Below, piece by piece: positions 3,196-51,815 of a stretch of DNA of 64,000 bases. Under the pieces are notes generated by a model. It was given only the letters and a program-made list of their open reading frames with translations. It did no database searches and was not told where the DNA came from. Positions within the stretch are counted from its first letter, which is position 1; each line of letters begins with the position of its first letter. The translations under genes and the position numbers were made by a program. Origin of the DNA: Lentimicrobiaceae bacterium (GTDB lineage Bacteria; Bacteroidota; Bacteroidia; Bacteroidales; UBA4417); assembly GCA_033809755.1 (NCBI GenBank), contig JAPXLB010000004.1, forward strand, positions 3,030-67,029, in the 5' to 3' direction.

Positions 3196-3293
3196 GAGTT
3201 TTAAGTTCTGATTTCTGAGTTCTGAGTCTTGAGTATTAAAAACTCAAAACTCCTGACTCAAAACTCAGAACTTTCAACTTCTGGTTTCAAACT
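3196..3293. repeat. Imperfect palindrome built from period-7 units (TGAGTTC/TGAGTCT versus ACTCAAA/ACTCAGA) between two PUL genes
   Basis: gttctgatttctgagttctgagtcttgagt ... actcaaaactcctgactcaaaactcagaac. The arms are approximately reverse-complementary around position 3238. Confidence 0.6.
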
Positions 3294-3337
3294 TACATAT
3301 TTGCATAAAAATTGCATATTTACTTTATTTTTACTTT

Positions 3338-5065
3338 CTAACACAATATCCATAAAAAACCGTACGGAGCTAATTTATCGCTTATTGTATTTCCCAACAA
3401 GTCGGATTGAGAGTTGTGTTTTACGATAAAGTCGCTTATGTCTTTGGTTTGCTCGCTTAAATTATGAATTATTTGTATCGTAACATTTTCGCACTCACGC
3501 TTGTAAATCAGAAGGTTTTTATCCTTATTGTTTTCGTCAAAATGTAAGGTTCCCCTGCCAAAAACATTGTATTTATTTCTGACGTTTATCATGTTTTTCA
3601 AAGGATAAAACACCTTTGAAGGCAGCGAGTTCTTGTTATTCAAATCGGTTTCAACCTCATTCCAATTTATATAGTTTCTTACTAAAAATCTGGTGTCGTC
3701 TTTTCCTGTTTTTTCAATTGTTGAGTAATACAGGTCTTCGTCATTCACAGTAGCAAACTCATCACCATAATAAATAATAGGAGAGCCTGTGAGTGTTAGC
3801 ATAATAGAGTATGCCAATAATATTTTATCTGAGTTGTATTGCATAAGGTCTGCAAGTCGGGCAGAAATTCCTTCGCCATTCCTGAAATCCCACAATTCTT
3901 TGTGGCAATAGTGTTCGTGAATAAACTTGCGTTCTTCTTCGGTAACGTAGACCAATTCCAAGCTCAACTCATCGTGGCATCTCAAGAAAGTAAACCACTG
4001 TGCTTCGGGACTAATAATCGGTGTAAATTTTTCGTCAAGTGTATCAATAATCGGGTTGCCGTCTTGTTGTGCTATTGCCTTAAACATACGTGGCATAAGC
4101 GGGAAGTGGTATGCAGCGTGGCATTCGTCGCCATCGCCTAAATATTCTACAACTTTGTTAGGTTGTTGGCAAGCCTCTGCTAATAAAAGAGTTCCAGGCG
4201 AAACGTAATCTAAAACAGCTCTGAAAAACTTAACCACCAAATGCGTTTGTGGCAGATTTTCGCAATCTGTGCCTTCTTCTTTCCATAAGTAGGGGATAGC
4301 ATCGGCTCTAAAGCCGTCGATGCCAATATTTTGCCAATAAAGCATGGCTCTACACATGGAAAAGAGAACTTCGGGATTTTTGTAGTTTAGATCGGGCTGA
4401 AAATTAAAAAAACGATGAAAATAATATTGGTCGTCGCATTTTTGCCAATTTGAATCTTCAATACCTTTAAAAATAATGCGAGCATCGGCGTAGCCTTTGT
4501 CGTCGTCAGCCCAAATATAATAATTCCTATAAGGATTGTTTTTACATTTCTTAGCTTCTAAAAACCATGGATGTTGGTCGGAAGTGTGGTTTATAGCAAA
4601 ATCGAAAATAATATTTATTCCTCTCTTGTGAGCCTGATCTACAAATTGTTTAAATTGAATGTTGGTTTCGGTGTTTTTGTTTGCAAACAAACTGTCTCTG
4701 ACAGAGTAATGGTCGGAAATGTCAAATCCGGCATCTCTCATAGGAGATTCCAAAATAGGCAGAAGCCACAAGCAGTTCACTCCTAAATCTTGCAGATAAT
4801 CCAACTTTTTTTCCAAACCCGAAAAATCATTGTTAAACCTATCTACATATAACGAATAAATCACCGCATCTTTGTACCAATCGGTTTTATTGTTTTTAAT
4901 GCTTTTGTTTTTTTTATATATTTCTATAGATTTTAAAAAGTTGTGTAACAGCGTAATGTCATTATCGGGATAAATATTTTTCCATAATGACTCTAATTTT
5001 GATGTGTAATCCATATCTAATGCTAATTTAAAAACATTATAAAAGTACTCTTTTTTTATAAACAT
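3338..5065 (-). CDS. Cytoplasmic GH13 alpha-amylase-family enzyme (trehalose synthase / amylosucrase / alpha-glucosidase-like)
   Basis: 575-aa ORF with no signal peptide. GH13 conserved regions are present: VIYSLYVDRF, GINIIFDFAINHTS (region I), GIDGFRADAIPYLWKEEG (region II plus III) and FLRCHDEL (region IV). Confidence 0.8.
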   Translation of the reverse strand: MFIKKEYFYNVFKLALDMDYTSKLESLWKNIYPDNDITLLHNFLKSIEIYKKNKSIKNNKTDWYKDAVIYSLYVDRFNNDFSGLEKKLDYLQDLGVNCLWLLPILESPMRDAGFDISDHYSVRDSLFANKNTETNIQFKQFVDQAHKRGINIIFDFAINHTSDQHPWFLEAKKCKNNPYRNYYIWADDDKGYADARIIFKGIEDSNWQKCDDQYYFHRFFNFQPDLNYKNPEVLFSMCRAMLYWQNIGIDGFRADAIPYLWKEEGTDCENLPQTHLVVKFFRAVLDYVSPGTLLLAEACQQPNKVVEYLGDGDECHAAYHFPLMPRMFKAIAQQDGNPIIDTLDEKFTPIISPEAQWFTFLRCHDELSLELVYVTEEERKFIHEHYCHKELWDFRNGEGISARLADLMQYNSDKILLAYSIMLTLTGSPIIYYGDEFATVNDEDLYYSTIEKTGKDDTRFLVRNYINWNEVETDLNNKNSLPSKVFYPLKNMINVRNKYNVFGRGTLHFDENNKDKNLLIYKRECENVTIQIIHNLSEQTKDISDFIVKHNSQSDLLGNTISDKLAPYGFLWILC

Positions 5066-5150
5066 GATATTAATAATTCAAAAAACTGCTAATTCAAAGT
5101 CAGGCTATTCATTGAATTATGAGCACTACGTTTAGTTCCCAAAAAAGGTA

Positions 5151-5190
5151 TAAAAAAAATGGGCTGCCTTTGGTTTTCAGACAGCCCATT
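5151..5190 (-). terminator. Rho-independent terminator downstream of the SusE/F-like gene
   Basis: 9-bp stem aatgggctg (5158-5166) / cagcccatt (5182-5190). On the minus strand it is followed by a U-run (plus-strand A-run 5152-5159). Confidence 0.6.
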
Positions 5191-5213
5191 AGATAGATTT
5201 TTAAAATACAGTT

Positions 5214-16854: not shown

Positions 16855-16893
16855 AACAATTAGCAATTAACAATGCGCAATTAGCAATTACCC
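16855..16893. repeat. Period-7 repeat (AGCAATT units) immediately after the pfk stop codon
   Basis: aacaattagcaattaacaatgcgcaattagcaattaccc. Confidence 0.5.
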
Positions 16894-20394: not shown

Positions 20395-21354
20395 ATGGAA
20401 TCCAAAAATTTAATCCCCGTGTTTTTTGCTATTGATGACGCATACGCGCCCTTGCTTGGTGTGGCGTTAAAATCAATCATCATTAATGCTTCAAAGAAGA
20501 GAAACTACAAAGTCATTATTATTCAAGAGAATGTTAGTGATACTAACCAGCGTAAATTGTTATCACTTGCCAACGAGAATTTTGATATAGAAATCATATC
20601 AATGGGCAAATCGTTAGAAAATATTACCGACCGCAGCGAGAATAGACTTCGATGTGACTATTTCACGATGACCATCTTCTTTAGATTGTTCATTCCTGAA
20701 ATGTTTCCGGAATACGATAAGTGTCTTTACTTAGACAGCGACATCGTAGTTCCCGGTGATATATCCGAGCTGTATGACACTGACGTACAAAACTACCTTA
20801 TCGCTGCTTGCCCCGACTACTCATCCTCCGACGTACCTCCGCTCATCAATTGGATGGAAAACGCCGTCGGGGTTGATCGGCACAAATACGTTAATTCGGG
20901 TATCTTGGTAATGAACCTGAAGAAGTTGCGTGAAGTGAAACTTGAGGAACACTTCATGCATTTGCTCAACACCTACCACTTTGATTGCATTGCACCCGAC
21001 CAAGATTACTTGAACGCAATGTGCAAGGGGCAGATTTTCTTTCTTGATGAATCGTGGGACGTTATGCCTAACCCGCGAAGGAAGGAGCATCCTGCGCCAA
21101 AGCTTATCCATTACAACCTGTTTGAAAAACCATGGTGCTACGATAATATTCAATATGCCGATTATTTCTGGAAGTACGCCGAAATGAGCGATTTCTATGC
21201 ACAAGTAAAGGAGATAAAAGATAACTACAGTGAGGAACAAAAGCTTCGTGACGAGCAAAGTTTCAATCTGCTCATTCAAAAAGCTAAAACCGTCCCCGAC
21301 ACCGGAGTAACTTTCGTAAAAATGGGCAAAGAGAACGTAAAGATAAAGCTATGA
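20395..21354 (+). CDS. Glycosyltransferase family 8
   Basis: 319-aa ORF with IPVFFAIDDAYAP, CLYLDSDIVVPGD (DxD), VNSGILVMNLKKLRE and IHYNLFEKPW. Confidence 0.85.
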   Translation: MESKNLIPVFFAIDDAYAPLLGVALKSIIINASKKRNYKVIIIQENVSDTNQRKLLSLANENFDIEIISMGKSLENITDRSENRLRCDYFTMTIFFRLFIPEMFPEYDKCLYLDSDIVVPGDISELYDTDVQNYLIAACPDYSSSDVPPLINWMENAVGVDRHKYVNSGILVMNLKKLREVKLEEHFMHLLNTYHFDCIAPDQDYLNAMCKGQIFFLDESWDVMPNPRRKEHPAPKLIHYNLFEKPWCYDNIQYADYFWKYAEMSDFYAQVKEIKDNYSEEQKLRDEQSFNLLIQKAKTVPDTGVTFVKMGKENVKIKL

Positions 21355-22205
21355 ACGATATAGATGGAAATCCGGTAATTTGCAATATCCGCAATGCAGT
21401 TGAAAAGGGATTGTTTCACGTCAAAGTGGAAGTGGGAGAGCCTGAATTTAATGCTGATGAGAAACGTGAAATTATCGAGAAATACTCGAAAGAACGAGAA
21501 ACAATGTCTTATTGGGTTAAAAATCGCATTGTTTGCATAGCTCAAAATGTGGTGTCTTTGTTGAGAAACATCAATACTAAGTATATTGGCATTGAAAACA
21601 CAAAAACGCTGGGAGACACGGGCGCAATTGTTACTAGTAATCATTTTAACCCGTTGGAAAACACTGCCATCTTCCGTGTGATAAAAAAAATAGGACGTCG
21701 AAAAAAAATGTATGCCATCAGTCAGGTATCGAACTTCAAAATGACGGGAATCATCGGCTTCTTATTGCGTTACGCTAATGTAATTCCAATCAGCAAGGAT
21801 TCTACGGAGTACATGTGCGAGAAATTTCCTGACCATGTTCAAATGGTGCTAAAAAAGGGCAATTTCATCCTCATGTATCCGGAGCAAGAAATGTGGCGCA
21901 ATTATCGTAAGCCTCGTCCATTGAAGTTGGGAGCTTATTTTTATGCTGCTAAATTTAATGTGCAGATTTTGCCTTGTTTCGTGGAGATACGTGATGAGCG
22001 TACTTTGTTCGGTATTTGGAATACGCGATATTTCGTTCATATACTGCCTGTCATAACCCCCAATCCGGAGTTAGATATAAAAACTGATGCTAAGCGCATG
22101 TTGCTCATCGATTACGAGCAGAAAAAAAATGCTTACGAGCGAGCATACGGACGACCCTTGGATTACACTTTTGACGCTTCGGATATTGCAGGAGGCATAA
22201 AATGA
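21351..22205 (+). CDS. Divergent LPLAT/PlsC-superfamily acyltransferase
   Basis: 284-aa ORF with TSNHFNPLEN (HX4E variant of motif I) and MYPEQEMW (motif III-like). Both neighbouring gene junctions are ATGA overlaps. Confidence 0.6.
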   Translation: MNDIDGNPVICNIRNAVEKGLFHVKVEVGEPEFNADEKREIIEKYSKERETMSYWVKNRIVCIAQNVVSLLRNINTKYIGIENTKTLGDTGAIVTSNHFNPLENTAIFRVIKKIGRRKKMYAISQVSNFKMTGIIGFLLRYANVIPISKDSTEYMCEKFPDHVQMVLKKGNFILMYPEQEMWRNYRKPRPLKLGAYFYAAKFNVQILPCFVEIRDERTLFGIWNTRYFVHILPVITPNPELDIKTDAKRMLLIDYEQKKNAYERAYGRPLDYTFDASDIAGGIK

Positions 22206-25200
22206 TACATGTAGGTATAGACATCGGGTCAACCACGGTTAAAATTGCCGCGATATCACCAACGGATAACAAATTGTTATACAAGAAATACGTCAGGCAT
22301 CATTCTCTGCAGGTTCGTACGTTAATAGAATTGTTAGACAACTTTCACGATGAATTCCGGTCGGAAACATGTAAAGTTGCAATTTGCGGTTCAGGTGGGA
22401 AACCCATCGCTGAGAAATTACGCGTTCCGTTCATTCAAGAGGTAGTTGCCAATGCCAACGCTGTCTGTTACTTGTACCCTGAAACCCGAACTGCGATTGA
22501 GCTTGGGGGACAGGATGCCAAGGTCATCTTTTTTTACCGAGACGAACACGACGGTCAACCAAAGGTATCAGATATGCGTATGAATGGTAATTGTGCCGGC
22601 GGCACGGGTGCCTTTATTGATGAAATAGCCCAATTACTTGATGTTCAAACTTCGGAATTTGATGCGCTCGCAGCCCAAGCTTCCAGAGTTTATGATATTT
22701 CAGGTCGTTGTGGCGTGTTTGCCAAGACAGATATCCAGCCCTTATTGATTCAAGGGGCAGCCCATGCCGACATTGCCCTTTCTACGTTTCATGCGATAGC
22801 GAAGCAAACAATCGGGGGACTTTCACAAGGTCTTGAGATTACTCCTCCTATTATTTTCGAAGGTGGACCCTTAACTTTCAACAAACAGTTGGTGAGAGTC
22901 TTCGTGGAACGGCTCCAACTTAAGGGAAATGATATCATCGTTCCGAAATACCCTGAAATTATCGTTGCCTATGGTGCTGCTCTTTCCATTGATAGACTCC
23001 AGAATGATAAGACCGATAATAGCTTCACGATAGATGAACTTCTAAAAAAATTAAGAAACATAGAGAGCGAAATCAGAATATCAACTAATGAGCCTCCTTT
23101 CTTTGATACTGAAAAAGATTACGCCGAATTCGCCGAAAGGCATGACAAAGAGTTGCGTGAAAATGCGATAGCAACTCCTCAAAACGGTATATTAGACGTT
23201 TACCTTGGCATAGATTCGGGTAGCACTACCTCTAAGTTTGTGCTCATAAATGAAGAAGAACAAGTGATTGAACGCTTTTACGCACCCAATTTAGGCAAAC
23301 CTTTGGACGTATTGAAGCGGGGACTGACGGAAGTTTACGGCAAGTACAAAAAGCAAGGCATTGAGTTGAACGTTAAGGGGTTTGGCAGTACGGGCTACGG
23401 TGAATTGATGACGGCAAACGCGTTAGGGGCAGATTATCACATCGTTGAGACAGTCGCACATGCTCAAGCTGCCTTACATTATTACCCCGACACCACATTC
23501 CTTTTAGATATTGGAGGACAGGACATGAAAGCCATATGGATTGATAACGGAGTGATAACCAATATTATGCTAAATGAAGCCTGCTCTTCGGGTTGCGGTT
23601 CTTTCCTTGAGAATTTCGCTGTTACGATGAAGATTCCGGTGGAAGAGATTGGTGCAGCTGCATTTCGCTCAACATCCCCGGCTAAGTTGGGAAGCCGTTG
23701 TACGGTTTTTATGACCAGTAGCATCGTAACCGAGCAACGCAACGGTAAGTCGCCGGACGATATCATGGCTGGTCTATGCCGTTCCATCATAGAGAATGTC
23801 TTCACTAAGGTGGTTAGGATTAACAATACCGATAGCTTGGGTAATAAAATTGTAGTACAGGGAGGTACTTTTCGAAATCGTGCGGTGCTGCGTGCCTTTG
23901 AAGAATACCTTGGCAAGGAGGTGCGACTTGCGCCATACCCGGGAGAGATGGGTGCAGTCGGTGTCGCCTTGCTCACGAAACAGCATATTGAGAAGTTAGG
24001 GTGCGTAGCTGAAAATAGTAGCAATTTCATAGGTTTCGACGAATTGAAAAGTTTTGACTATGTAACTGAGTCGGGTGTGCCATGTCCGCATTGTGCTAAT
24101 CATTGCTTACGAACCATAATCCGTTTCCCGAAAGGAAAAGCTTGGGTAACCGGAAACAAGTGCGAACGTGGGGCTGAACTTACCGACGGGAAAAAAGACA
24201 AAAAATTGAAGGTAAAAAAAACCGAAAGAAGTGCGACAGACCTTTTCTCAAAAAGAGCGAGGATGTTATTTGAGCCATACCCTTGTGAAAATGTGTCGAA
24301 CCAAAAAAGAGAAATTGTGGGCTTGCCCCGCACGTTGGAATTCTGGAACAGTATGCCGTTTTGGAGTACTTTCTTTAAAGCATTGGGATTCAAAACGTTG
24401 TTCTCAAACCCTAGCGATCAAGAAATCTACGAGAAAGGTCTTCAGTTTGTGGCATCCGATACTATATGTTTTCCGGCTAAGATGGTACACGGGCATATCG
24501 AAAACCTTGCCGAAAAAGGTGTCGACCGCGTATTCCTGCCTTATGTGATGCATTTGCCACCTGAGGGCGTGGACAAGTTAAGTCCCTACGTCTGTTCCAT
24601 CATCATGGGATATTCCATGGTAGTCAGAAATACGCAAGATCCGGCAAAAAGGCATAGTATTCACTTAGATACACCTATATTTCACTGGTTTTCAGAAAAA
24701 GACAGAATTCGACAAATTTGCGATTTCGCCGTTGAAAGTCTAAATGTTAGCCGAAAGGAGGCAAAACAAGCTTACCTATCAGCCCTAAACTCTATGACAA
24801 CATTTAAAACTATGCTCCGCTCCGAAGCTGAACGCCTTATACAGGAAGCTGAACGTGCGAACAAAACGGTTATTGTTTTAGCCGGTCGACCTTATCACAG
24901 TGACCCGTTTATTTCGCACAATGTTACCAAGTTCTTTATTGAAAAAGGACTCTCCGTTATCCCTGTAGATGCTTTACCCGGCTTAGAAGAAGTGGATTTA
25001 CGCCATACTAACATTGAGATTACTAACAACTTCCACACGAGGATGCTAGCGGGGGCTGTTATAGCAGCACAAAACCCGGCGCTCGAATACGTACAATTGG
25101 TCAGTTTTGGATGTGGGCACGATGCTGTACTCTCCGACGAGATTGTTCGCATAATGAAATGTTGCGGTAACAAATCTCCATTAATCCTAAAAATTGATGA

Positions 25201-26551: not shown

Positions 26552-26571
26552 ATATACAAGCACGAGATATA

Positions 26572-27914: not shown

Positions 27915-27916
27915 TC

Positions 27917-29104
27917 TTACACTTTATACATGATTTCTTGCATGCTATCGCAGGCGGTTTCAATTTCTTGAATAGAGATTGTCAGAGGCGGAGCAATACG
28001 AATAGCAGATTCGTTAAACAAGAAATTATCGACAATTATTCCGTGCTTGACGCAAGAATTACAAGTTTTTATTGCTAACTCGGCACTTTCCATTTGCAAT
28101 GCTATGAGCAGTCCGCTGCGTCTTACTTCAGTTACAAGCGGATTGTCGGCAAAAAACTCGTAGAAGAAATCACTTTTTTCTTTAACACTTTCTATAAGTT
28201 TTTCGTTTTCAATAACATCAATGGCAGCACTTGCAGCAGCACAACAAACTGGATGTCCGCCAAAAGTCGTGATATGTCCCAAAACAGGTTCGTGAGTCAG
28301 CGAATCCATTATTTCCTGCGAAGAAATAAAAGCACCTAAAGGCATTCCACCGCCAAGAGCTTTGGCTGTTAACAGAATATCTGGAACTATACCGCTGTGT
28401 TGAAAGTAAAACCATTTCCCTGTTCGTCCCATTCCCGACTGTATTTCGTCGAATATGAGCAAAGCACCTTTTTGTGAGCATGTTTTACGAAGCTCATTCA
28501 GGTATTGGTCGTTGGCTTTTACAACGCCTGCTTCGCCTTGTACCGGCTCAATAATTACGCATGCGGTATCTTCATCAATATTTTTTAAATCGTCAATATT
28601 GTTAATCTCGATGAGTGTAATATTTGGGAGCAAGGGTGCAAATGCTTTTATGTGTTCGGCACTTGATGTTAAACTAAGTGCACCGTGAGTGCCGCCGTGG
28701 TAGGCGTTTTTCAGAGCTACTATTTTTCTTCTTCCGGTGTAGCGTTTGGCTAATTTTAAAGCACCTTCAACGGCTTCGCTTCCCGAATTAACGTAATATA
28801 CCGAGTTTAGTTGTTCAGGCAATATAGCTACAAGTTTTTGTGTTAGAAGCACTTGTGCCGATTGTATCATTTCGCCGTAAACCGAAATGTGCATATGTTT
28901 GTCTAATTGCTGTTTGATAGCGTTTATGACGTACCGGTTGTTGTGTCCTACGTTGCTTACCGAAGTGCCTGAAATTAAATCCAAGTATTTTTTGCCTTCG
29001 GGCGAATACAAATAGCAACCTTCGGCTCTCTCGATGGTCAGACCCATAGGGTTTTTGCTTGTTTGAGCAACGTGCTGATAAAATATTTCTCTTTGTGATA
29101 GCAT
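27917..29104 (-). CDS. Class-III PLP aminotransferase (acetylornithine/GABA aminotransferase family)
   Basis: 395-aa ORF with NSGSEAVEGALKLAK, LIFDEIQSGMGRTGK and ILLTAKALGGGMPLGA (PLP-Lys region). Confidence 0.85.
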   Translation of the reverse strand: MLSQREIFYQHVAQTSKNPMGLTIERAEGCYLYSPEGKKYLDLISGTSVSNVGHNNRYVINAIKQQLDKHMHISVYGEMIQSAQVLLTQKLVAILPEQLNSVYYVNSGSEAVEGALKLAKRYTGRRKIVALKNAYHGGTHGALSLTSSAEHIKAFAPLLPNITLIEINNIDDLKNIDEDTACVIIEPVQGEAGVVKANDQYLNELRKTCSQKGALLIFDEIQSGMGRTGKWFYFQHSGIVPDILLTAKALGGGMPLGAFISSQEIMDSLTHEPVLGHITTFGGHPVCCAAASAAIDVIENEKLIESVKEKSDFFYEFFADNPLVTEVRRSGLLIALQMESAELAIKTCNSCVKHGIIVDNFLFNESAIRIAPPLTISIQEIETACDSMQEIMYKV

Positions 29105-29203
29105 CTTTTAAAAATTTCACCAAAGTTAATGGTTTTGCGAAAAAAAGAGGAATAAAATCTAATATTTCGCTGTTTGTGTTAATTTTGCAAGAAAAGCGAC
29201 AAA

Positions 29204-30013
29204 ATGAAAGGAAAAGTTGTAATAATAACGGGAGCATCGTCGGGGATTGGCAGAGCACTTGCAATTGAGTTTTCAAAGAAAGGAAGTAAGGTTGCTTTGG
29301 CGGCTCGCAATTCCGAAAAGTTAGATGCGGTTCTATCCGAAGTTAAGCAATACAATGCTGATGCTATTTCGGTAGTAACTGATGTAAGCGTTGTAAGCGA
29401 TTGCGAAAATTTGGTTAAAAAAACCGTTGAAGCGTTTGGCAAAATAGATGTGTTGATTAACAATGCCGGCATTAGCATGCGTTCGATGTTTATAGACACA
29501 GACCTGTCTGTTATGCACAAAGTTATTGATACCAACTATTGGGGGACGGTTAATTGTACAAAATTTGCTTTGCCTTATTTAGTCGAGCAGAAAGGGAGTT
29601 TGGTTGGTGTAATTTCCATAGCCGGATATTTGGGCTTACCTGCACGTTCGGCTTACTCGTCTTCAAAGTACGCTATCAGAGGGTTTTTAGATACTATAAG
29701 AGTAGAATATTTAAAATCCGGATTACATGTTTTGGTTGCTGCACCCGGCTTTACAGCTTCAAATATAAGGAAAGTAGCACTTTTAGGAGATGGAAGTCCA
29801 CAAGGCGAAACTCCAAGAAATGAAGAAAAAATGATGACTTCCGAACAGGTAGCAAAAAAAATCTACAGGGCTGTTGTAAAACGCAAACGCACTTTGATAC
29901 TGACTTTCGTTGAAGGAAAATTTGCAGTATTTTTGTCAAAGTGGTTTCCGTCGCTGCTCGATAGGTTTAACTATAATCATATGGCGAAAGAAGAAGGCTC
30001 ACCGTTGGGGTGA
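29204..30013 (+). CDS. Short-chain dehydrogenase/reductase (SDR)
   Basis: 269-aa ORF with VVIITGASSGIGRALA, NNAGI and a YSSSKYAIRGF catalytic YxxxK. Confidence 0.9.
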   Translation: MKGKVVIITGASSGIGRALAIEFSKKGSKVALAARNSEKLDAVLSEVKQYNADAISVVTDVSVVSDCENLVKKTVEAFGKIDVLINNAGISMRSMFIDTDLSVMHKVIDTNYWGTVNCTKFALPYLVEQKGSLVGVISIAGYLGLPARSAYSSSKYAIRGFLDTIRVEYLKSGLHVLVAAPGFTASNIRKVALLGDGSPQGETPRNEEKMMTSEQVAKKIYRAVVKRKRTLILTFVEGKFAVFLSKWFPSLLDRFNYNHMAKEEGSPLG

Positions 30014-30105
30014 GCGGTGGTCGGTGGTGAGTGATGAGTGGTGAGTGATGAGTGATGGGTGATGAGTGATGAGTGGTTGGTGATGAGTGGTGGGTGGTGG
30101 GTGAG
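30008..30105. repeat. Heptamer repeat tract (GGTGAGT/GGTGATG/GGTGGGT units)
   Basis: gggtgagcggtggtcggtggtgagtgatgagtggtgagtgatgagtgatgggtgatgagtgatgagtggttggtgatgagtggtgggtggtgggtgag. It starts at the SDR stop codon. Confidence 0.7.
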
Positions 30106-30297
30106 TTCCAAAAACTTCGGTCGCTGAGTGCCGAAGGTGTATCGAAGCGCCGAAGTTTTAATCGTTCTCCATTTTCGGCATTTCGGGTTTCGGCTACGCT
30201 CCCTTCGCTACCGCACGATTGCATCGTGTGGGAATTGTGCATTTCGATACACCGATATTTCGCTATGCTCAATATCGGCACTCAATGACCGAAAATG
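30106..30297. other. GC-richer non-coding core with nested inverted repeats (candidate structured RNA or decayed insertion)
   Basis: Outer 9-bp pair gagtgccga (30126-30134) / tcggcactc (30275-30283). Inner 11-bp pair ggtgtatcgaa (30136-30146) / ttcgatacacc (30243-30253). Local hairpin cacgat-tgc-atcgtg (30214-30228). Confidence 0.4.
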
Positions 30298-30331
30298 TCG
30301 AACCCGCAACCCGCACCCCGCACCCCGCAAC
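30298..30331. repeat. Heptamer repeat tract (ACCCGCA units)
   Basis: tcgaacccgcaacccgcaccccgcaccccgcaac. The same tcgaacccgca seed occurs at 27237. Confidence 0.65.
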
Positions 30332-30333
30332 AT

Positions 30334-30876
30334 TTAAAACCCAAATCCTAATCCCATCCTAATAACAGGATTATTATACAACGAGTTTTGCGAATCGTTT
30401 AAGTTCCAAAGTATGGAAATGTGAACAAAAGTCTTTTCTCCAACTTGCTGGCGATATCCGCCACCGACTAAGAAACTATCAAAATCTTGCTTTTGATTTT
30501 CGATAAGGTCGGATTTTGTATTGAAAAAGAGCTTTTCGTATTCGGCATGTAGAAAAATGTTGTAAACAACTACGTATCGTGCAAAAATGCTGCCGCCGTA
30601 AACGTTGGTTACAATTTTGTCGGAGGTATAATAAGGTCTATATCTGTAATACTTGTATGTTGGTGTAACTCCTATACCAAAATTAGGTAATAGTTCAACT
30701 CCAATTGAGGGAGAAACTTCGATAAGAGTAGTATTTCCGAACTGTAAGCCAAATCCGCCGCCATAAAAAATTCTTGGTTTAAAGGGAGTTCTTTGCTTAT
30801 TGCTTTCTTGTCCGAAAGTCAAGCCATGAAGCAGAATAATTAGAATCAGCGTTATAAATATTTTTTCATTTTTCAT
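30334..30876 (-). CDS. Small outer-membrane beta-barrel protein (porin-family-like), function unknown
   Basis: 180-aa ORF with a signal peptide, an alternating hydrophobic/Gly-Tyr-rich pattern and a C-terminal GLGFGF. Confidence 0.5.
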   Translation of the reverse strand: MKNEKIFITLILIILLHGLTFGQESNKQRTPFKPRIFYGGGFGLQFGNTTLIEVSPSIGVELLPNFGIGVTPTYKYYRYRPYYTSDKIVTNVYGGSIFARYVVVYNIFLHAEYEKLFFNTKSDLIENQKQDFDSFLVGGGYRQQVGEKTFVHISILWNLNDSQNSLYNNPVIRMGLGFGF

Positions 30877-30944
30877 TAGTTTTGTTTTAACAACTTAATA
30901 ATTACAATAAATATGCCTACAAAATTAAGTTAGATACTGCAAAT

Positions 30945-32018
30945 TTACAATAAATTATAAATATGTTCGGCTGCAATATCCGCTGCATCGCCTTTTCCGT
31001 ACAAACTAGCACTAAAATCGATATTTTTATTGTTCATGGTTTCGTAGGCATTTATAATGCTTTTGGTATTATGTCCGGCAAGCATATTGCATCCATGTTC
31101 TATCAATTCCGTCCATTCGGTTTCGTTACGCAAAGTTACACAAGGTTTTTTAAAGAAAAAAGCTTCTTTTTGAACTCCGCCGCTGTCGGTTAAAATTAAA
31201 TTACAATTTTGTTGCAAAGTAATCATATCGAAATAACCAACAGGTTCAATTATTGTAAAGTCGGGTCGAACATTGTGTTTTTGTATTATATTTTTGGTTC
31301 GAGGATGCAAAGGCACAACAACTTCAACAGATTTATTGATAGTATTCAGTGCATCAATAATTTGCTTTAGGTTATCGATATTATCGGTGTTTTCTTGTCG
31401 GTGCACGGTAGCTAAAACAAATTCGTTCAAGTTCAGAGAATTAATAATATTCGATTTTGTTTTTGCAATAGGAGAGTAGAACAAACTTGCATCAAACATA
31501 ACATCTCCGTTTTTGACAATAATGGCGTCAAACTTATCGAAACTTTCGTTATGCAGGTTTTTTACGGCTGTGTCCGAAGGGCAAAGTAGCAACGAGGATA
31601 TTCTGTCGGTAATAATTCTGTTGATTTCTTCGGGCATATTATTGTTAAACGAACGCAAGCCGGCTTCAACGTGGACAACCGGAATGTTAAGTTTTCGTGC
31701 TGCCAATGCACCTGCCAAAGTACTGTTGGTATCGCCGTAAACCATGACAACTTCGGGCTTTTCCGAAAAAAGAATTTCTTCTATAGCTTCCAACATTTTG
31801 CCTGTCATGGCTCCGTGTGATAAGCTGTTTATGTCAAGATTGTAGTCGGGTAACGGAATTTGCATTTCCGAAAAGAAAATATCAGACATATTCTTATCAA
31901 AGTGTTGCCCGGTGTGAACAATAACTTCTTTTACTGGAAATTTCTTAAAAGCTCTGCTTATGGTTGCCGCCTTTATAAATTGAGGTCTGGCTCCTATTAC
32001 TGTTACTACTTTTTTCAT
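30945..32018 (-). CDS. wecB: UDP-N-acetylglucosamine 2-epimerase (non-hydrolysing)
   Basis: 357-aa ORF with GARPQFIKAA, VYGDTNSTLAGALAA, HVEAGLRSFN, MPEEINR and TDSGGVQKEA. Confidence 0.9.
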   Translation of the reverse strand: MKKVVTVIGARPQFIKAATISRAFKKFPVKEVIVHTGQHFDKNMSDIFFSEMQIPLPDYNLDINSLSHGAMTGKMLEAIEEILFSEKPEVVMVYGDTNSTLAGALAARKLNIPVVHVEAGLRSFNNNMPEEINRIITDRISSLLLCPSDTAVKNLHNESFDKFDAIIVKNGDVMFDASLFYSPIAKTKSNIINSLNLNEFVLATVHRQENTDNIDNLKQIIDALNTINKSVEVVVPLHPRTKNIIQKHNVRPDFTIIEPVGYFDMITLQQNCNLILTDSGGVQKEAFFFKKPCVTLRNETEWTELIEHGCNMLAGHNTKSIINAYETMNNKNIDFSASLYGKGDAADIAAEHIYNLL

Positions 32019-32059
32019 ACTTATTTATTTTATTGTTGTCCGGTAAATATCTTTGGCTG

Positions 32060-32193
32060 TTGGTGATGGGTGATGGGTGATGAGTGATGAGTGTTGAGTC
32101 AGGAGTATTGACACTCGGAACTCGGAACTCGCAACCCGCAACCCGCAACCCGCAACCCGCACCATTCACCGACCACCAATCACCATTCACCAC
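32060..32193. repeat. Composite heptamer repeat hairpin element (GGTGATG arm; GGAACTC and ACCCGCA core; CACCATT arm)
   Basis: tggtgatgggtgatgggtgatgagtgatgagtg...ggaactcggaactcgcaacccgcaacccgcaacccgcaacccgca...ccattcaccgaccaccaatcaccattcaccac. The outer arms are approximately complementary. Confidence 0.7.
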
Positions 32194-32235
32194 AAAGTTA
32201 CATTCTTTTGCATGATTTCACCAAACATTAATATA

Positions 32236-34281
32236 CTATTTAGGTTTAACATTAAACTGTTCCATTTTATTTTTGTACATGTACATTTCATCTCTAAGGC
32301 GTGCAGCTTCCATAAAATCGAGGTCTTTGGCGGCTTTTTGCATAAGAGTTTTTGATGTATTGTAAAGTTTTTCCAACTGTTGATAGCTAAGATATTCGCT
32401 CAATGGGTCTGCGGCTGAGTTAATAATCGAACCTTCGACGTAGATTTTATTGGCTTTGTCGGGAGTCGGCGTTCCGCTATCGGCACTCAATCCGACCAAA
32501 TCGGTGCTAATATCTTTAATAATTTGTTTTGGAGTAATATTGTTTATGCGGTTGTATTCCAACTGGATACTGCGTTTTCTGTTGGTTTCGTCTATTGTTT
32601 TTTGCATAGAATCGGTTATAGTATCGGCGTAGAAAATAACCTTGCTGTTTATGTTTCTGGCGGCTCTTCCTGCTGTTTGCGTAAGCGATTTTTCCGAACG
32701 CAAAAATCCTTCTTTGTCGGCATCCAAAATTGCAACCAACGAAACTTCAGGAAGGTCTAATCCTTCGCGCAGCAAGTTTACACCAACCAAAACGTCGATT
32801 TCGCCTGTTCGCAGACTGTTAAGAATCTCAACACGTTCAATAGTAAGCACACCCGAGTGCAAGTATTTGGTTTTGATATTAAGATTGCTCAAATATTTTG
32901 AAAGCTCTTCAGCCATGCGTTTGGTAAGCGTTGTAATGAGAGTTCTCTCGTTATTTTTAGTTCTAATCTGAATTTCATTAAGCAAATCGTCGATTTGGTT
33001 TAAGCTGGGCTTAACTTCAATAATCGGGTCTATGAGTCCTGTTGGTCTTACAATTTGCTCAACAATAACTCCGTTGGCTTTTGCGAGTTCGTAGTCGGCA
33101 GGTGTGGCACTAACGTATATAACCTGATTTGTCAGGGCTTCAAATTCCGGAAATTTAAGAGGTCTGTTATCCAAAGCCGAAGGCAGTCTGAAACCGTACT
33201 CAACCAAATTTTGCTTTCGCGAGCGGTCGCCGCCGTACATGGCTCTAATTTGCGGAACCGTAACATGGCTTTCGTCAACGACCATTAAATAATCGTCGGG
33301 AAAATAATCGAGCAAGCAAAACGGACGTGTGCCGGGTTTTCTGCCGTCGAAATAACGACTGTAATTTTCAATTCCCGAACAATAACCGAGCTCTCGCATC
33401 ATCTCCAAATCGTAAGTAACTCTGTCTTCCAAACGTTTGGCTTCAATAATTTTACCGGTTTCTTTGAAAAAATCAATTTGTTTGCCTAAATCAATATGAA
33501 TATTTCTTATAGCTGATTGAATTTTTTCTTTTGAAGTAACGAAAATATTTGTAGGAAATATTGTAAATTGTTCCAAATGCTCGATGAGGTTGCCGCTTAT
33601 GGGGTTGAATGTGGAAATTTCTTCAATTTCGTCGCTAAAAAAAATAACTTTGCAAGCAAAATCGGCTTCAACAGGAAAAATATCAACAGTGTCGCCTTTA
33701 ACTCTGAATTTTCCCCTTTCGAGGTCAAATTCGGTTCTGGAATAAAGACTATCGACCAAACGACGCAGAAATTTATCACGACTGATTTTGTCGCCAACTT
33801 TGATATGGATAGTGTTGTTATTGATATCTTCGGGATTTCCAATTCCGTAAATGCACGAAACCGAAGCAACAATAATTATATCGCGTCTGCCTGTGAGCAG
33901 CGAAGAAGTAGCATCAATTCTCAGTTTTTCAATTTCTTCGTTTATGGAAATATCCTTTTCAATATAAGTATTGGTGGTAGGAATAAAAGCTTCGGGTTGG
34001 TAATAGTCGTAGTACGAAATAAAAAACTTGACAGCGTTTTCGGGGAAAAACTGCTTGAACTCAGCGTACAGCTGTGCTGCAAGAGTTTTATTGTGGCTGA
34101 GGACTAATGTCGGACGTTGAATTTGATTTATTACATTGGCAATAGTAAAAGTTTTTCCCGACCCCGTAACACCTAATAAAACCTGATGCTTATCGTTTCT
34201 GAGCAAGCCCTCGTACAATTGTTTAATCGCCGAAGGTTGGTCGCCGGTAGGTTCAAATTTAGATGTTAGTTTAAACTCCAT
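32236..34281 (-). CDS. uvrB: Excinuclease ABC subunit B
   Basis: 681-aa ORF with QVLLGVTGSGKTFT (Walker A), YYDYYQPEA, VDESHVT, LLREGLDLPEVSLV and a C-terminal UVR domain (MQKAAKDLDFMEAARLRDE). Confidence 0.95.
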   Translation of the reverse strand: MEFKLTSKFEPTGDQPSAIKQLYEGLLRNDKHQVLLGVTGSGKTFTIANVINQIQRPTLVLSHNKTLAAQLYAEFKQFFPENAVKFFISYYDYYQPEAFIPTTNTYIEKDISINEEIEKLRIDATSSLLTGRRDIIIVASVSCIYGIGNPEDINNNTIHIKVGDKISRDKFLRRLVDSLYSRTEFDLERGKFRVKGDTVDIFPVEADFACKVIFFSDEIEEISTFNPISGNLIEHLEQFTIFPTNIFVTSKEKIQSAIRNIHIDLGKQIDFFKETGKIIEAKRLEDRVTYDLEMMRELGYCSGIENYSRYFDGRKPGTRPFCLLDYFPDDYLMVVDESHVTVPQIRAMYGGDRSRKQNLVEYGFRLPSALDNRPLKFPEFEALTNQVIYVSATPADYELAKANGVIVEQIVRPTGLIDPIIEVKPSLNQIDDLLNEIQIRTKNNERTLITTLTKRMAEELSKYLSNLNIKTKYLHSGVLTIERVEILNSLRTGEIDVLVGVNLLREGLDLPEVSLVAILDADKEGFLRSEKSLTQTAGRAARNINSKVIFYADTITDSMQKTIDETNRKRSIQLEYNRINNITPKQIIKDISTDLVGLSADSGTPTPDKANKIYVEGSIINSAADPLSEYLSYQQLEKLYNTSKTLMQKAAKDLDFMEAARLRDEMYMYKNKMEQFNVKPK

Positions 34282-39527: not shown

Positions 39528-39881
39528 ATGTACGAAAACATTGTAGTAGTTGGCGATAAGATATTAATAAAACCCCTGACCGAAAGCAACAAAACCAAGG
39601 CAGGCTTGTATTTGCCTTCTGGATATTCGGAAAAAGATGAGATAAAACAAGGCTACGTTATAAAAACCGGTCCTGGCGTTCCTTACCCTCACTTTGATGG
39701 CGATGTCGAGCCATGGAAAAGCGAAGACAATACTACCAAGTACATGCCTTTGCAAGTCAAGGAAGGCGATTTGGCTTTTTTCTTAGCAAGATACGCTTAC
39801 GAAATAAAATACAAGCAAGAAACCTTGTTTGTTGTGTCGCAGCATCATATTTTGCTGGTAGAGAGAGATTTTGATTTATAG
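39528..39881 (+). CDS. GroES/Cpn10-family protein (orphan, no adjacent groEL)
   Basis: 117-aa ORF. VVGDKILIKPLTESNKTKAGLYLP resembles the GroES mobile-loop region. It is longer than canonical GroES. Confidence 0.55.
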   Translation: MYENIVVVGDKILIKPLTESNKTKAGLYLPSGYSEKDEIKQGYVIKTGPGVPYPHFDGDVEPWKSEDNTTKYMPLQVKEGDLAFFLARYAYEIKYKQETLFVVSQHHILLVERDFDL

Positions 39882-39886
39882 AAATA

Positions 39887-39970
39887 GTAGTGGTGGGTGA
39901 TGGGTGGTGGGTGGTGGGTGTTTTTTTTGAGATGTGAGGTTGCTGGCGATTCCTTTCACTCGTCACTCAC
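39887..39970. repeat. Heptamer repeat arm (GGTGGGT/GGTGATG) plus T-run plus TCCTTTCACTCGTCAC box, on the left flank of the four-helix-bundle gene
   Basis: gtagtggtgggtgatgggtggtgggtggtgggtg tttttttt gag...gcgattcctttcactcgtcactcac. Confidence 0.7.
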
Positions 39971-40326
39971 TTAATTTTTACTTCTAATTTTTTGATTAGG
40001 TTAATCAGTTGTTTTCTGGTTACCACAATTAGTTCTATAATATCATCCACCGATTGTATATATTTTTGTCTATAAGCTATGTATATTTGAGTTTCTAATT
40101 CAGCTATTGAACCAAGAGAGATATAACAAAACTGAATGTACTCCTTTGTATTCTTTCTATTAAAACCTTCTGCAATATTAGATGGAATAGAAACAGCGCA
40201 TCTCCTTATTTGGGATGTTAGAGAAAAAACTTCATCTTTAGGGAACTGTTTAGTCAACACATATACTTTGTCGACTAAATCCATTGCATTGTTCCAAACA
40301 TCCATATCTTTAAACGAAAGTATCAT
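39967..40326 (-). CDS. Four-helix-bundle protein (23S rRNA intervening-sequence protein family)
   Basis: 119-aa ORF. FPKDEVFSLTSQIRRCAVSIPSNIAEGFNRKNTKEYIQFCYISLGSIAELETQ is the hallmark of this family. Confidence 0.85.
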   Translation of the reverse strand: MILSFKDMDVWNNAMDLVDKVYVLTKQFPKDEVFSLTSQIRRCAVSIPSNIAEGFNRKNTKEYIQFCYISLGSIAELETQIYIAYRQKYIQSVDDIIELIVVTRKQLINLIKKLEVKIK

Positions 40327-40345: not shown

Positions 40346-40420
40346 GGTCAGAGGTCGGTGTTTTTTGGAGGCGAGTCCTTTCACTCTTCACCCATCACTC
40401 ATCACTCATCACCTTTCACC
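40346..40420. repeat. Heptamer repeat arm (CACCCAT/CACTCAT) plus T-run plus TCCTTTCACTCTTCAC box, on the right flank of the four-helix-bundle gene
   Basis: ggtcagaggtcggtg tttttt ggaggcgagtcctttcactcttcacccatcactcatcactcatcacctttcacc. It abuts the stop codon of the phosphoglucomutase gene. Confidence 0.7.
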
Positions 40421-48866: not shown

Positions 48867-48899
48867 CAAAAAAATAATAAACAATAAAAACATAATATC

Positions 48900-50114: not shown

Positions 50115-50149
50115 AACACAACGCAAAAATAGAATAAAGATAAGTTACT

Positions 50150-51217
50150 ATGAATGTAGCAGCTTTGGTTTCGGGTGGTGTTGATAGTTCGGTTATGCTG
50201 TACTTGCTCAAAGAACAGGGCATTAATCCTACTATGTTTTACATACAAATTGGTATGAAAGAAGATGAGCATTTCTTAGATTGTTCGTCTGAGGAAGACA
50301 TAGAAATTGCTACGGCTTTGGCAAAAAAATACGGACTTAAGTTGGAAGTCGTTCCGCTTCACAACGAGTATTGGGATAATGTTATTGAATACACCATCAA
50401 TTCCGTAAAAAAAGGTTTGACACCAAACCCCGATGTTATGTGTAATCGTCTGATTAAATTCGGAGAGTTTGAAAAACATTGGGGAAAAGACTTCGATTTA
50501 ATTGCTACAGGGCACTACGCAGGCACCGAAAACAAAATGCAAAAAAAGTATCTGACTACAGCCAAAGACAAGTTGAAAGACCAAACTGATTTTTTGGCTC
50601 AAATTACTTATAATCAGCTGTTAAAACTAACTTTCCCACTCGCCGATTATATGAAATCGGAGGTTAGAGATATTGCATTAGAACAAAACATGCCAAGCGC
50701 TATGCGTAAGGATAGTCAAGGGATTTGTTTTTTGGGGAAAGTTAATTACAACGATTTTATAAAAAAGTATTTGGGAATCAAGACTGGAAACATTGTTGAG
50801 CTAAGTACGGGAAAAATTTTGGGAACTCACAACGGATTTTGGTTTCACACTATAGGACAGCGAAAAGGACTTAATTTGGGCGGCGGTCCTTGGTTCGTTA
50901 TAAAAAAAGACGTTGAGCAAAACATAATTTATGTTGACAACGGCTACGACCCGCCTTCGCAATATACCGACACTGTTCTGCTAGAAAACATGCATTTTAT
51001 AACCGAAAATCCTTTTGGCGAGGAAGATAGTATCAATATCACTTTTAAAATCAGGCATACTCCTGATTTCACAAAAGGCGTTTTGCTCAAAACCAGTGAT
51101 AAATATATTATTAAGTCGGAAGAACCGCTTTCTGGTGTCGCTGCGGGACAATTCGGAGTCATTTACGACACAAATTCTCATATTTGTATGGGTAGTGGAA
51201 TTATTGATAACAATTAA
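50150..51217 (+). CDS. mnmA: tRNA 2-thiouridine(34) synthase MnmA
   Basis: 355-aa ORF with ALVSGGVDSSV (PP-loop), NPDVMCN, ATGHYA, KDQTDFL, DSQGICFLG and GQRKGL. Confidence 0.95.
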   Translation: MNVAALVSGGVDSSVMLYLLKEQGINPTMFYIQIGMKEDEHFLDCSSEEDIEIATALAKKYGLKLEVVPLHNEYWDNVIEYTINSVKKGLTPNPDVMCNRLIKFGEFEKHWGKDFDLIATGHYAGTENKMQKKYLTTAKDKLKDQTDFLAQITYNQLLKLTFPLADYMKSEVRDIALEQNMPSAMRKDSQGICFLGKVNYNDFIKKYLGIKTGNIVELSTGKILGTHNGFWFHTIGQRKGLNLGGGPWFVIKKDVEQNIIYVDNGYDPPSQYTDTVLLENMHFITENPFGEEDSINITFKIRHTPDFTKGVLLKTSDKYIIKSEEPLSGVAAGQFGVIYDTNSHICMGSGIIDNN

Positions 51218-51230
51218 AAAATACATACAT

Positions 51231-51704
51231 ATGAAAAAAACACATCTTCTTCTATTAGCAGTCGCGGTACTCTTATTAATGAGTTCATGCGGCAATAAAA
51301 CAATTTACACCGAACAAGTAGATTTTTCGAATAATATTTGGAACCGATTCGATAAAAAAAATATTAAAATACCATTCACTTCCGATGACGTAATTGTTGA
51401 TATTAGCATTGCTATAAAATACAATAATGATTTGCAGTACAACAATGTTGCCATGTATGCCATATTAACTTTACCTTCAGGCGAAGAAAGATTTCGTGAG
51501 ATACATGTTCCAATAAATCGAAATCTTGACAAAAAAATTGAAGCTGATAGTGTTTATGAAGCACAGGCATTTTTATGGAGAGGTGTTAATGTTTCGGAAG
51601 AAGGCACAGGTAACTTGGAAATCGAAAATATGATACCATACTTCGAAACAAAAGGAATTAAGCAACTAACTGTAGAGGTGTTGAAGTCGGGTTCCGACGA
51701 TTAG
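51231..51704 (+). CDS. gldH: Small lipoprotein, GldH-like (gliding-motility lipoprotein family)
   Basis: The ATG at 51231 gives MKKTHLLLLAVAVLLLMSSCGNK (lipobox). Size is ~157 aa, and the layout resembles GldH (early W-containing segment, then NN..YNN...L block). The track ORF from 51015 overlaps mnmA and is rejected. Confidence 0.5.
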   Translation: MKKTHLLLLAVAVLLLMSSCGNKTIYTEQVDFSNNIWNRFDKKNIKIPFTSDDVIVDISIAIKYNNDLQYNNVAMYAILTLPSGEERFREIHVPINRNLDKKIEADSVYEAQAFLWRGVNVSEEGTGNLEIENMIPYFETKGIKQLTVEVLKSGSDD

Positions 51705-51815
51705 TGATTGGTGATTAGTGGATGGTGGATGGTGGATGGTGGATGGTGGATGGTGGATGGTGAAAGATACTAACCACTCATCACCCATCACTCACCACTC
51801 ATCACTCATCACCAT
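51704..51815. terminator. Long heptamer-repeat hairpin between convergent genes (probable bidirectional terminator)
   Basis: The left arm is gtgattggtgattagt followed by five perfect GGATGGT copies (51720-51754). The loop is aagatactaa. The right arm ccactcatcacccatcactcaccactcatcactcatcaccatc is imperfectly complementary. Confidence 0.6.

Follow-up and report, generated by a model that had tools for sequence, protein, structure and literature searches.

The short tandemly repeated repetitive (STRR) sequences of cyanobacteria, reportedly described by Mazel et al. in 1990, are said to be dispersed intergenic heptamer arrays with several unit classes per genome; the units of STRR1-3 are CCCCAGT, TTGGTCA and CAACAGT. 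Elhai et al. reportedly found, in 2008, small palindromic dispersed repeats of about 21-27 nt nested in the heptamer arrays of Nostoc punctiforme. According to Mrazek (2007), as cited in two later papers (PMC4679880, PMC4692102), heptamers are the most abundant class of long simple sequence repeats (SSRs) in most prokaryotic genomes, and polymerase slippage was proposed to produce them. The GGGAATC and GGGGAYT heptamers of Xanthomonas and Nostoc lie 0-50 nt past the stop codon with their G-rich strand as the coding strand, overlap stop codons, are depleted between divergent genes, occur as inverted pairs and vary in length among relatives (Rehm et al. 2015, PMC4692102). Heptamer direct repeats are also present in Gramella, Aequorivita, Elizabethkingia, Flexibacter and Paludibacter and absent from close relatives, with contigs breaking in the repeats and indels coming in 7-nt steps (MacGregor 2015, PMC4679880). 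Here we describe period-7 arrays at gene 3′ ends in a Lentimicrobiaceae bacterium (Bacteroidales; assembly GCA_033809755.1), in a 64,000-nt stretch of contig JAPXLB010000004.1 (positions 3,030 to 67,029) that is called the window below. They are probably heptanucleotide SSR arrays (the STRR or heptameric long SSR class) that proliferated in one uncultured digester Bacteroidales lineage, with proliferation primary and any role at transcript 3′ ends secondary.

An autocorrelation scan for tandem arrays (score ≥10, periods 4 to 13) turned up 12 period-7 arrays and no more than one at each other period, whereas 30 dinucleotide-preserving shuffles gave a mean of 0.07 period-7 arrays. A preliminary description of this DNA had listed nine period-7 loci, and Tandem Repeats Finder makes a period-7 call at each of them (3195-3272, 16857-16890, 27264-27292, 30024-30104 with 11.6 copies, 30301-30331, 32063-32192 with four unit classes, 39890-39920, 40381-40420 and 51709-51816), the units being visible in 7-nt register. 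Details of that listing need amending: GGATGGT at 51718-51762 is a true array but has 6.4 perfect copies rather than five; ACCCGCA at 27237 amounts to merely about two units, although the seed tcgaacccgca does occur at 27237 and 30298; and the AGCAATT array at 16855 is present but weaker than the others (77% matches). Arrays contain 4 to 14 units, with no preference for four, and draw on at least six unrelated unit classes. The same arrays recur, identical, in many independent assemblies of the organism and are therefore not an assembly artefact; the window itself is contained in the metagenome-assembled genomes GCA_046128195.1 and GCA_049658625.1. Their density, 14 per 100 kb, compares with about 1 per 100 kb in 80 other Bacteroidota species (1.31 Mb), a few of whose loci or genomes are array-rich, each with its own units.

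The 4.8 kb of non-coding DNA contain all 12 arrays, and the 59.2 kb of coding sequence are free of them (binomial p = 3e-14), which bears out the earlier view that they are non-coding spacer elements; the nine loci of the window and one further locus in a 4.5-kb extension are all non-coding. The extension locus (L155 15700-15754, ~0.6 kb left of window position 1) consists of TTAATTG x3 and GGCTAAC x3.7 in the spacer that separates a phosphoribulokinase/uridine-kinase-family gene from a convergent aminotransferase gene, its GGCTAAC array overlapping a stop codon. As had been said, the arrays are not CRISPR either: they are 7-nt units without spacers, whereas CRISPR repeats measure 24-48 nt and alternate with unique spacers.

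The distribution among spacers is strongly biased. In the window census, arrays occupy five of the six convergent spacers, 3 of the 28 co-directional ones and none of the seven divergent ones (Fisher p = 0.0004 for convergent spacers versus the rest, p = 0.005 versus divergent ones), so that the claim of a mostly convergent location stands. The sixth, array-free convergent spacer is just 5 nt long, and in the occupied ones arrays fill nearly the whole length. The arms lie close to stop codons: 9 of the 11 stop-proximal arms overlap the stop codon or begin 0-5 nt past it, as at the NUDIX gene (stop at 27285-27287) and the short-chain dehydrogenase gene. The original wording, by which all arrays lie immediately after stop codons and several overlap them, is thus right about the overlaps and about these nine arms but not about those after the amylase and UvrB genes, which begin 44 and 42 nt downstream. 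The genes beside the arrays are ordinary housekeeping genes with no common theme.

An arm adjoining a stop codon presents its C-poor, G/T-rich, stop-rich strand in the sense of that gene, and two-arm loci consequently read [G-rich][C-rich] on both strands in every case. This order holds at 5/5 two-arm loci, and both single arms are G-rich in sense (n = 7 independent loci, p = 0.016); the AGCAATT array at 16855 counts neither way. The GTGATGR arrays, whose unit variants show purine transitions at two positions only (GTGRTGR), meet stops in all three frames within 3-31 nt when read in sense and are open when read antisense. The antisense reading is the source of the junk open reading frames (ORFs) that the preliminary description had pointed out. 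This orientation rule, holding across unit classes, is new here. The constant feature is the orientation of an arm relative to its gene and not the complementarity between arms; the hairpin is probably not the primary feature.

Comparison of strains showed that the arrays change length in 7-nt steps and that their wholesale replacement outpaces the divergence of flanking genes. In nine other assemblies of the species, the 11 kb around the arrays are identical save for a few scattered differences, among them a single-nucleotide polymorphism at 30309, within the TGCGGGG/TGCGGGT array 30298-30331, and a one-unit indel at 32130-32136 in the ACCCGCA block. The window and runs X3 and X7 have this unit, and the nine other assemblies and runs X12, X17 and X25 lack it; both alleles thus occur in different metagenomes, in agreement with the expectation of slippage-prone tracts that vary in copy number between strains. 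The spacer between the Cpn10-like gene and the phosphoglucomutase (PGM) gene differs more deeply. The window and some strains hold a 23S_rRNA_IVP gene there, between GTGGTGG and CACTCAT arrays, and other strains have TTGCGTG and CAACCGC heptamers with a palindromic core (described below) and no 23S_rRNA_IVP gene. In these latter strains the flanking genes are ~94% identical to those of the window, and the swapped arrays are again G/T-rich in the sense of each gene. One strain at ~3.5% divergence retains the window arrays without indels, which indicates that they are not hyper-unstable. Tandem 7-nt units beyond chance, many dispersed intergenic loci and one-unit steps between strains, the marks of heptanucleotide long SSRs, are all found in this organism.

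The strains are also mosaics in a broader sense. Over window 20945-33600, compared with L081-L090, identity is 100% up to 32790 or 33585 and then gives way to 3-6% divergence. This switch lies inside uvrB and points to recent homologous recombination between strains; with its breakpoints at 32791 or 33586, and not at an array, we rejected the idea that the arrays serve as recombination breakpoints.

The closest UvrB homologues are 72-75% identical, the named ones coming from Lentimicrobiaceae or Bacteroidales metagenome-assembled genomes (MAGs), and in one-genome-per-species collections the epimerase loci come no closer than 63-65% identity. In the nearest relatives compared (UvrB 72-74% identical, MutL-rhomboid-UvrB synteny kept), 66 kb contained no period-7 array, and several convergent spacers carry textbook A-tract/hairpin/T-tract bidirectional terminators. 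The lack of arrays in relatives, their frequency of about 1 per 100 kb in Bacteroidota and the turnover between strains argue together for a lineage-specific proliferation and against a conserved part of the spacers.

Some of the arrays belong to a larger mosaic built on a palindromic core. When intact, the core is an imperfect palindrome of ~65-70 nt (CATTTTCGG...GAGCGAAGCGA...CCGAAAATG; hairpin z = -4.4 to -5.0). In three unrelated DNA metagenomes, its depth is 139-163x that of the single-copy flank at ≥95% identity and about 200-225x at ≥90% identity, which suggests ~150-220 copies per genome; the near equality of the ratio in the three samples argues that the copies belong to this genome. 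The words of the GTGATGR array at 30008-30105 reach 24-45x the flank in the same three metagenomes. In the window copy (30167-30302), an interruption at 30186-30246 consists of a low-copy insert of 54 nt and the 7-nt direct repeat that flanks it, CATTTCG, and a metagenome contig whose joint skips 61 nt represents the uninterrupted form. The length of this direct repeat equals the period of the arrays. A short variant of the core (ACTTCGGTCGCTGAGTGCCGAAGGTGTATCGAAGCGCCGAAGT) at 30113-30160 lies at 9-14x flanking depth. In other strains the Cpn10-PGM spacer holds an inverted copy, 97% identical, of the right part (30239-30302) of the non-heptamer sequence between the arrays at 30008-30331; the core is also seen at L081 2014-2080 and L083 2033-2099. 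Core variants retain their stems by paired changes (TTTTCGG/CCGAAAA vs ACTTCGG/CCGAAGT; CATT/AATG vs CGC/GCG); these were read directly from the sequences, and the alignment-based fold was not used because MAFFT misaligned the short variants among the four.

Downstream of other core copies there are mostly C-rich heptamer arrays of the types AACTCGN, AACACGA and AACCCGC. Junction contigs at single-copy depth, from other loci of the same genome, run core, AACTCGN, (AACCCGC), CACYCAT, giving an order of unit classes, from the centre outward, of core, AACTCGN, AACCCGC, CACYCAT and stop codon. From its centre outward, the composite locus at 32060-32193 repeats this order of units. The recurrence of heptamer classes in fixed combinations, put forward in the preliminary description, is therefore real, and the whole of arrays and core is a mosaic repeat comparable to the bacterial interspersed mosaic elements (BIMEs).

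The layout of G-array, core and C-array recurs in a distantly related Bacteroidales MAG (L013) that has units and a repeated core of its own: after a stop codon come TTGGCTR x8, a core of ~210 nt, AACCCGCAACTCGC and ACTGCTC x6. Its loci lie at 380-760 and 3400-4060, and palindromes of the GTCATCCTGAGCGAAG type are found there as well. No match to a 21-mer of the core of our organism was obtained in an IMG/VR scan, nor to the core in plasmid and phage collections. A metagenome scan with the terminal-repeat pattern CATTTTCGGN{35,65}CCGAAAATG gave 120 matches, none of them core-related by BLAST, the pattern being too loose.

Complementary arms that form long hairpins were found at five of the nine loci, and at four of these five the folds beat shuffled sequences (z = -6.6, -4.7, -2.9/-3.8 and -2.8). 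The earlier claim that a G-rich arm is usually paired with a complementary C-rich arm holds for these five, but 27237 and 40385 each have one arm only. At 30008 (GGTGATG) and 30298 (ACCCGCA) the arms are of different, non-complementary classes, and pairing is not constant, as GTGGATG faces CACTCAT at 51704-51815. A Rho-independent terminator consists of a G+C-rich stem-loop followed by a U-tract, and the array hairpins lack this combination. The window holds only three canonical G-quadruplex (G4) motifs, all within arrays (39895-39918, plus strand; 32135-32158 and 30303-30326, minus strand) and each on the sense strand of the upstream gene, against 0.2 in local shuffles. At the level of motifs, this agrees with the suggestion that GG-containing arms could form non-B structures: three arrays have a G3 run in every unit, and the GGTGATG, GTGGATG, GAGTTTT and AGCAATT arrays do not.

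Several explanations other than proliferation by slippage have to be weighed, the most substantial being that the arrays were selected as U-tract-independent bidirectional terminators or RNA 3′-end stabilisers that replaced canonical terminators, with the hairpin or the G-rich tract as the working part. We regard this as possible, if somewhat doubtful. It would fit the arrays' making up almost all the length of five of the six convergent spacers, the classical terminators at several convergent spacers of the nearest relatives, the scan that shows no other terminator-like hairpins in array-bearing spacers, the strength of the folds (z down to -6.6) and the contigs of an RNA run that extend from uvrB through the entire composite array to the hairpin base at 32064. 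However, these RNA data are low-depth contigs of one run in which ends at repeats are expected from assembly alone, and another contig of the run crosses the 39887 hairpin. Moreover, the single arms at 27237 and 40385 and the non-complementary pair at 30008/30298 make no hairpin, a T-run follows the 39887 array only, and the nearest relatives do without arrays, which are thus no conserved requirement. A role of the arrays as terminators or as 3′ structures of transcripts is suggested by their position and folding. The G4 motifs offer another version of a 3′-end function, in which elements of the type described by Rehm et al. would act after the stop, on the non-template DNA strand or in RNA, to pause RNA polymerase or protect the 3′ end. 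The location of all three canonical motifs in arrays on the sense strand (0.2 in shuffles) and the positional rule shared with the G4-forming heptamers of Xanthomonas and Nostoc speak for it, but most arms (GGTGATG, GTGGATG, GAGTTTT, AGCAATT) have GG runs at most or none, and arrays of 4 to 14 units show no preference for four, so that we find this explanation improbable. A regulator that binds RNA or DNA at periodic sites, MacGregor's proposal for the TAACTGA repeats, would account for the strict 7-nt spacing, the conserved orientation relative to the gene and the restriction of purine transitions to two positions of GTGRTGR. With at least six unrelated unit classes, a swap of class in one spacer between strains, housekeeping neighbours without a common theme and a location after stop codons instead of before start codons as in Beggiatoaceae, such sites are very unlikely to be the answer.

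The core raises the further alternative of a mobile mosaic element, similar to BIMEs and their repetitive extragenic palindromic (REP) sequences or to miniature transposable elements with inverted repeats (MITEs), whose core moves and at whose ends heptamers are made, for instance in the form of repeated 7-bp footprints or target duplications. The ~150-220 copies of the core per genome equivalent in a ratio shared by three unrelated metagenomes, the C-rich heptamer arrays on most 3′ flanks of other copies, the resemblance of core-adjoining units to the terminal TCGAAC(C) of the core, the 7-nt direct repeat around the 54-nt insert, the paired stem-keeping changes and the repeated core between arrays in L013 could all be read in this way, and the core does have inverted ends (CATTTTCGG...CCGAAAATG) as a MITE would. 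We nevertheless think it unlikely. The core is found at one of the nine array loci of the window, possibly two, and most arrays are coreless; no transposase or REP-associated tyrosine transposase (RAYT) gene was seen in the 72 kb read; no target duplication was seen around the cores themselves, and the lone 7-nt duplication could be chance; and the alignment-based fold of the core variants, being misaligned, is uninformative. A bolder combination, which we consider rather less likely still, is that a BIME-like mosaic (~65-nt core, ~200 copies, ordered arrays) spread to hundreds of gene ends, replaced the bidirectional terminators and acts without a U-tract as a terminator or 3′-end structure, the 7-nt period being dictated by whatever process moves or repairs the core (a staggered cut of 7 bp, or a footprint) and not by slippage alone.

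We therefore favour the reading of the arrays as heptanucleotide SSR arrays that proliferated in this lineage. Replication slippage would generate the arrays and their 7-nt steps, with template switching between arms, and arrays would persist only at harmless sites, namely spacers at transcript 3′ ends without promoters. The orientation that survives would be the one that leaves no open reading frame next to the gene end, with stops in all frames, which would account for the orientation rule. Between convergent genes, two opposed arrays would fold together as a long hairpin at a site where several convergent spacers of the nearest relatives carry a bidirectional terminator, and would there probably form a transcription barrier or a protective RNA 3′ structure.

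Several observations weigh against this reading. The orientation rule comes from just seven independent loci, and in L107, an unrelated low-GC contig of IMG/VR, the C-rich strand is the sense strand of the co-directional genes at all 11 arrays. None of the five long hairpins has a U-tract past its stem, since the T8 after the 39887 arm sits inside the loop, and a scan of the window for consensus terminators found 15 sites where 15 were expected, none of them an array hairpin. The RNA-run contig that spans the 39887 hairpin (39556-40222), if it is RNA, argues against efficient termination there. One of the two L013 mosaics lies in an apparently divergent spacer. Finally, the 7-nt polymorphism is the single line of evidence that points to slippage as the mechanism, and the fixed order of unit classes is not obviously explained by a purely neutral model.

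Tandem GTGATGR is also present in 56 IMG/VR contigs (L091-L146; G+C 0.26-0.70), and some high-GC contigs (L098, L134) carry at least 10 arrays of many unit classes in ~13 kb. A universal rule of G-rich arms in sense was rejected on this set: the high-GC contigs gave 40 vs 13 with crude ORF calls and the low-GC contigs 9 vs 6, and L107 is reversed.

At the left end of the window, downstream of the stop of the alpha-amylase-family gene (3338-5065, minus strand), the proximal arm of GAGTTTT/GAGTCAG-type heptamers (3239-3293, minus strand) starts after 44 nt and pairs with a distal arm of GAACTCA-type heptamers (3195-3234, minus strand) in a long hairpin (-40 kcal/mol, z = -6.6). In other strains (tails of L157 and L158, contigs from 9 samples) this hairpin between the amylase and GH65 genes is broken at the loop, between GAGTTTTTAAT and GTCATGTCCTGAAATAGG. 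The break site corresponds to about window 3236-3240, where the L157 and L158 contigs end, and may mark an insertion or a rearrangement. The AGCAATT/AACAATT array (16855-16893, plus strand), which is not G-rich, begins at the base after the phosphofructokinase stop codon and is followed by a small hairpin and U-tract (CCCAgcuauaUGGGUUUUU), this being the sole spacer with a small classical hairpin and U-tract beside an array. The single arm of GGTGATG/GGTGAGT-type heptamers at 27237-27292 (minus strand), which overlaps the NUDIX gene stop, is followed by GGGGTGC and a small hairpin, CGGGTTCGACCCG, and forms no long hairpin (z = -0.3).

The core locus begins with 14 units of the GGTGATG/GGTGAGT type (30008-30105, plus strand), which overlap the stop of the short-chain dehydrogenase gene (29204-30013); beyond the two cores, the TGCGGGG/TGCGGGT array (30298-30331, minus strand) starts 2 nt past the stop of a gene for a 180-aa protein (30334-30876, minus strand). 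Weak Rfam matches to archaeal C/D-box sRNAs at 30041-30129 are probably a coincidence, owing to the identity of the unit GTGATGA with the C-box consensus RUGAUGA. At the composite locus, the proximal arm of AATGGTG/TCGGTGA-type heptamers (32160-32193, minus strand) starts 42 nt past the UvrB stop (32236). It is followed on the same strand by inner blocks of TGCGGGT x4-5 and GAGTTCC x3 (32113-32161), which include the polymorphic unit, and by a distal arm of CATCACC/CATCACT-type heptamers (32060-32111) that closes a 147-nt hairpin (-58.5 kcal/mol, z = -2.8).

In the Cpn10-PGM spacer, a GTGGTGG/GTGATGG array (39887-39928, plus strand) starts 5 nt past the stop of the Cpn10-like gene and is followed by the T8. 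A short GTGAGTG/ACGAGTG arm (39941-39966, minus strand) abuts the stop of the 23S_rRNA_IVP-family gene and pairs with 39887-39920 when read on the plus strand (z = -4.7). A single arm of GGTGATG/AGTGATG units (40380-40420, minus strand) begins at the phosphoglucomutase stop codon. The 23S_rRNA_IVP or bAvd-like gene itself (39967-40326, minus strand), present in some strains and absent in others, is located between two complementary heptamer arms and flanked by a ~26-nt direct repeat, GGCGAnTCCTTTCACTCnTCAC, at 39941-39966 and 40365-40392, the first copy coinciding with the short arm. The idea of a mobile gene was set aside, the exact protein being found always in the same PGM-Cpn10 context. 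In Coxiella, too, tandem heptamers lie upstream of the S23p ORF in the 23S intervening sequence (PMC4990558). The last locus combines GTGATTG x2 and a perfect GTGGATG x6.4 (51699-51762, plus strand), beginning at the stop of the GldH-like gene, with GTGATGA/GTGGTGA units (51769-51816, minus strand), beginning at the stop of the CLC channel gene; together they form an imperfect hairpin (z = -2.9 and -3.8).

The gene content of the window is typical of Bacteroidota, with a SusC/SusD pair, a GldH-like lipoprotein, a GH65 enzyme and a Por secretion tail. A very long ORF at 58800-64000 runs off the end of the window and probably encodes a large surface protein with repeated domains. It contains 264-nt tandem repeats in 7-8 copies of 65-90% identity, together with further repeats of ~300 nt (repeat stretches 59175-60022 and 61450-62851). 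Near-identical DNA was found in metagenomes of anaerobic digesters, biogas fermenters, bioreactors and landfill, at ~1000x depth in one.

Why seven bases are preferred, and what heptamer arrays after stop codons do, are questions left by the 2007 and 2015 papers. This lineage provides a clean natural case for them, with ~14 arrays per 100 kb, nearly every convergent pair occupied, array-free relatives with ordinary terminators at comparable spacers, and strain polymorphism in public data. Its added value lies in the orientation rule across unit classes, the contrast with terminator-keeping relatives and the high-copy core. In practice, short-read assemblies of an abundant digester organism break at the arrays, and annotation acquires junk ORFs from them.

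Among known systems, the STRR sequences and the Nostoc repeats resemble the arrays in that many intergenic heptamer arrays of several classes are scattered over one genome and enclose small palindromic dispersed repeats, but our host is not a cyanobacterium and the core (~65 nt) differs from the Nostoc elements. None of the STRR1-3 units, TAACTGA, GGGAATC or GGGGAYT occurs in tandem in the window. An origin of the DNA in cyanobacteria, with STRR sequences proper, was likewise rejected on the absence of HIP1 sites from the 64 kb, the Bacteroidota genes and the absence of STRR units in tandem. Rfam, searched over the whole window at the gathering threshold and over 29900-30450 at E ≤ 1, returned just a tRNA and chance C/D-box matches, and no repeat family. 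A literature search with unit and core sequences as text found no paper that prints these units. The arrays match a catalogued class in kind, a match that the preliminary description had said would tell against it, but they match no named family with known function.

Like the repeats of Rehm et al. (PMC4692102), the arrays are dispersed, intergenic, tandem 7-nt units depleted from coding DNA, with inverted pairs able to form hairpins, neighbouring genes without a common function, and variation in sequence and length between close relatives. The published position is also found here: within 50 nt of the stop the coding strand is the G-rich one, and arrays are depleted between divergent genes. 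The positional pattern is therefore not novel, the same rules having been published for Xanthomonas and Nostoc (PMC4692102) and heptamers for Bacteroidetes (PMC4679880); nor is a period of seven unusual, as had been supposed, if heptamers are the most abundant long SSR class in most prokaryotes, as both papers relate. The differences from the Rehm repeats lie in the Bacteroidales host, in units other than GGGAATC and GGGGAYT, in G3 runs in 3 of ~12 arms, in the lack of a four-unit preference, and in the ordered, concatenated unit classes with a high-copy palindromic core. The TAACTGA repeats of Beggiatoaceae lie just upstream of start codons (PMC4679880), whereas the arrays here follow stop codons. 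The BrickBuilt MITE of Porphyromonas gingivalis (PMC4596501), also from the Bacteroidales, shares a tandem repeat within a dispersed intergenic element and small inverted-repeat ends, but has a 23-nt unit, 19 copies and promoter activity and is not tied to stop codons.

REP sequences and BIMEs have been proposed to act as RNA 3′ stabilisers or transcription barriers. The mosaic described here shares with the REP/BIME elements of enterobacteria and with the REPINs (REP doublets forming hairpins) of Pseudomonas (PMC3116915) an imperfect palindrome, hundreds of copies, a location in 3′ or convergent spacers and motifs in fixed order, and what is expected of such a core (an imperfect palindrome, some 100 or more extragenic copies, mosaics) is found. 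Unlike those elements, its flanking motifs are slippage-prone heptamer arrays, and sequence similarity is nil. The arrays are thereby linked to a palindromic core of high copy number, neither of the two having been characterised in this phylum, and an ordered mosaic with a ~200-copy core, which has no described counterpart in Bacteroidota, is new. The arrays themselves are a known phenomenon in a new host, with new unit sequences.

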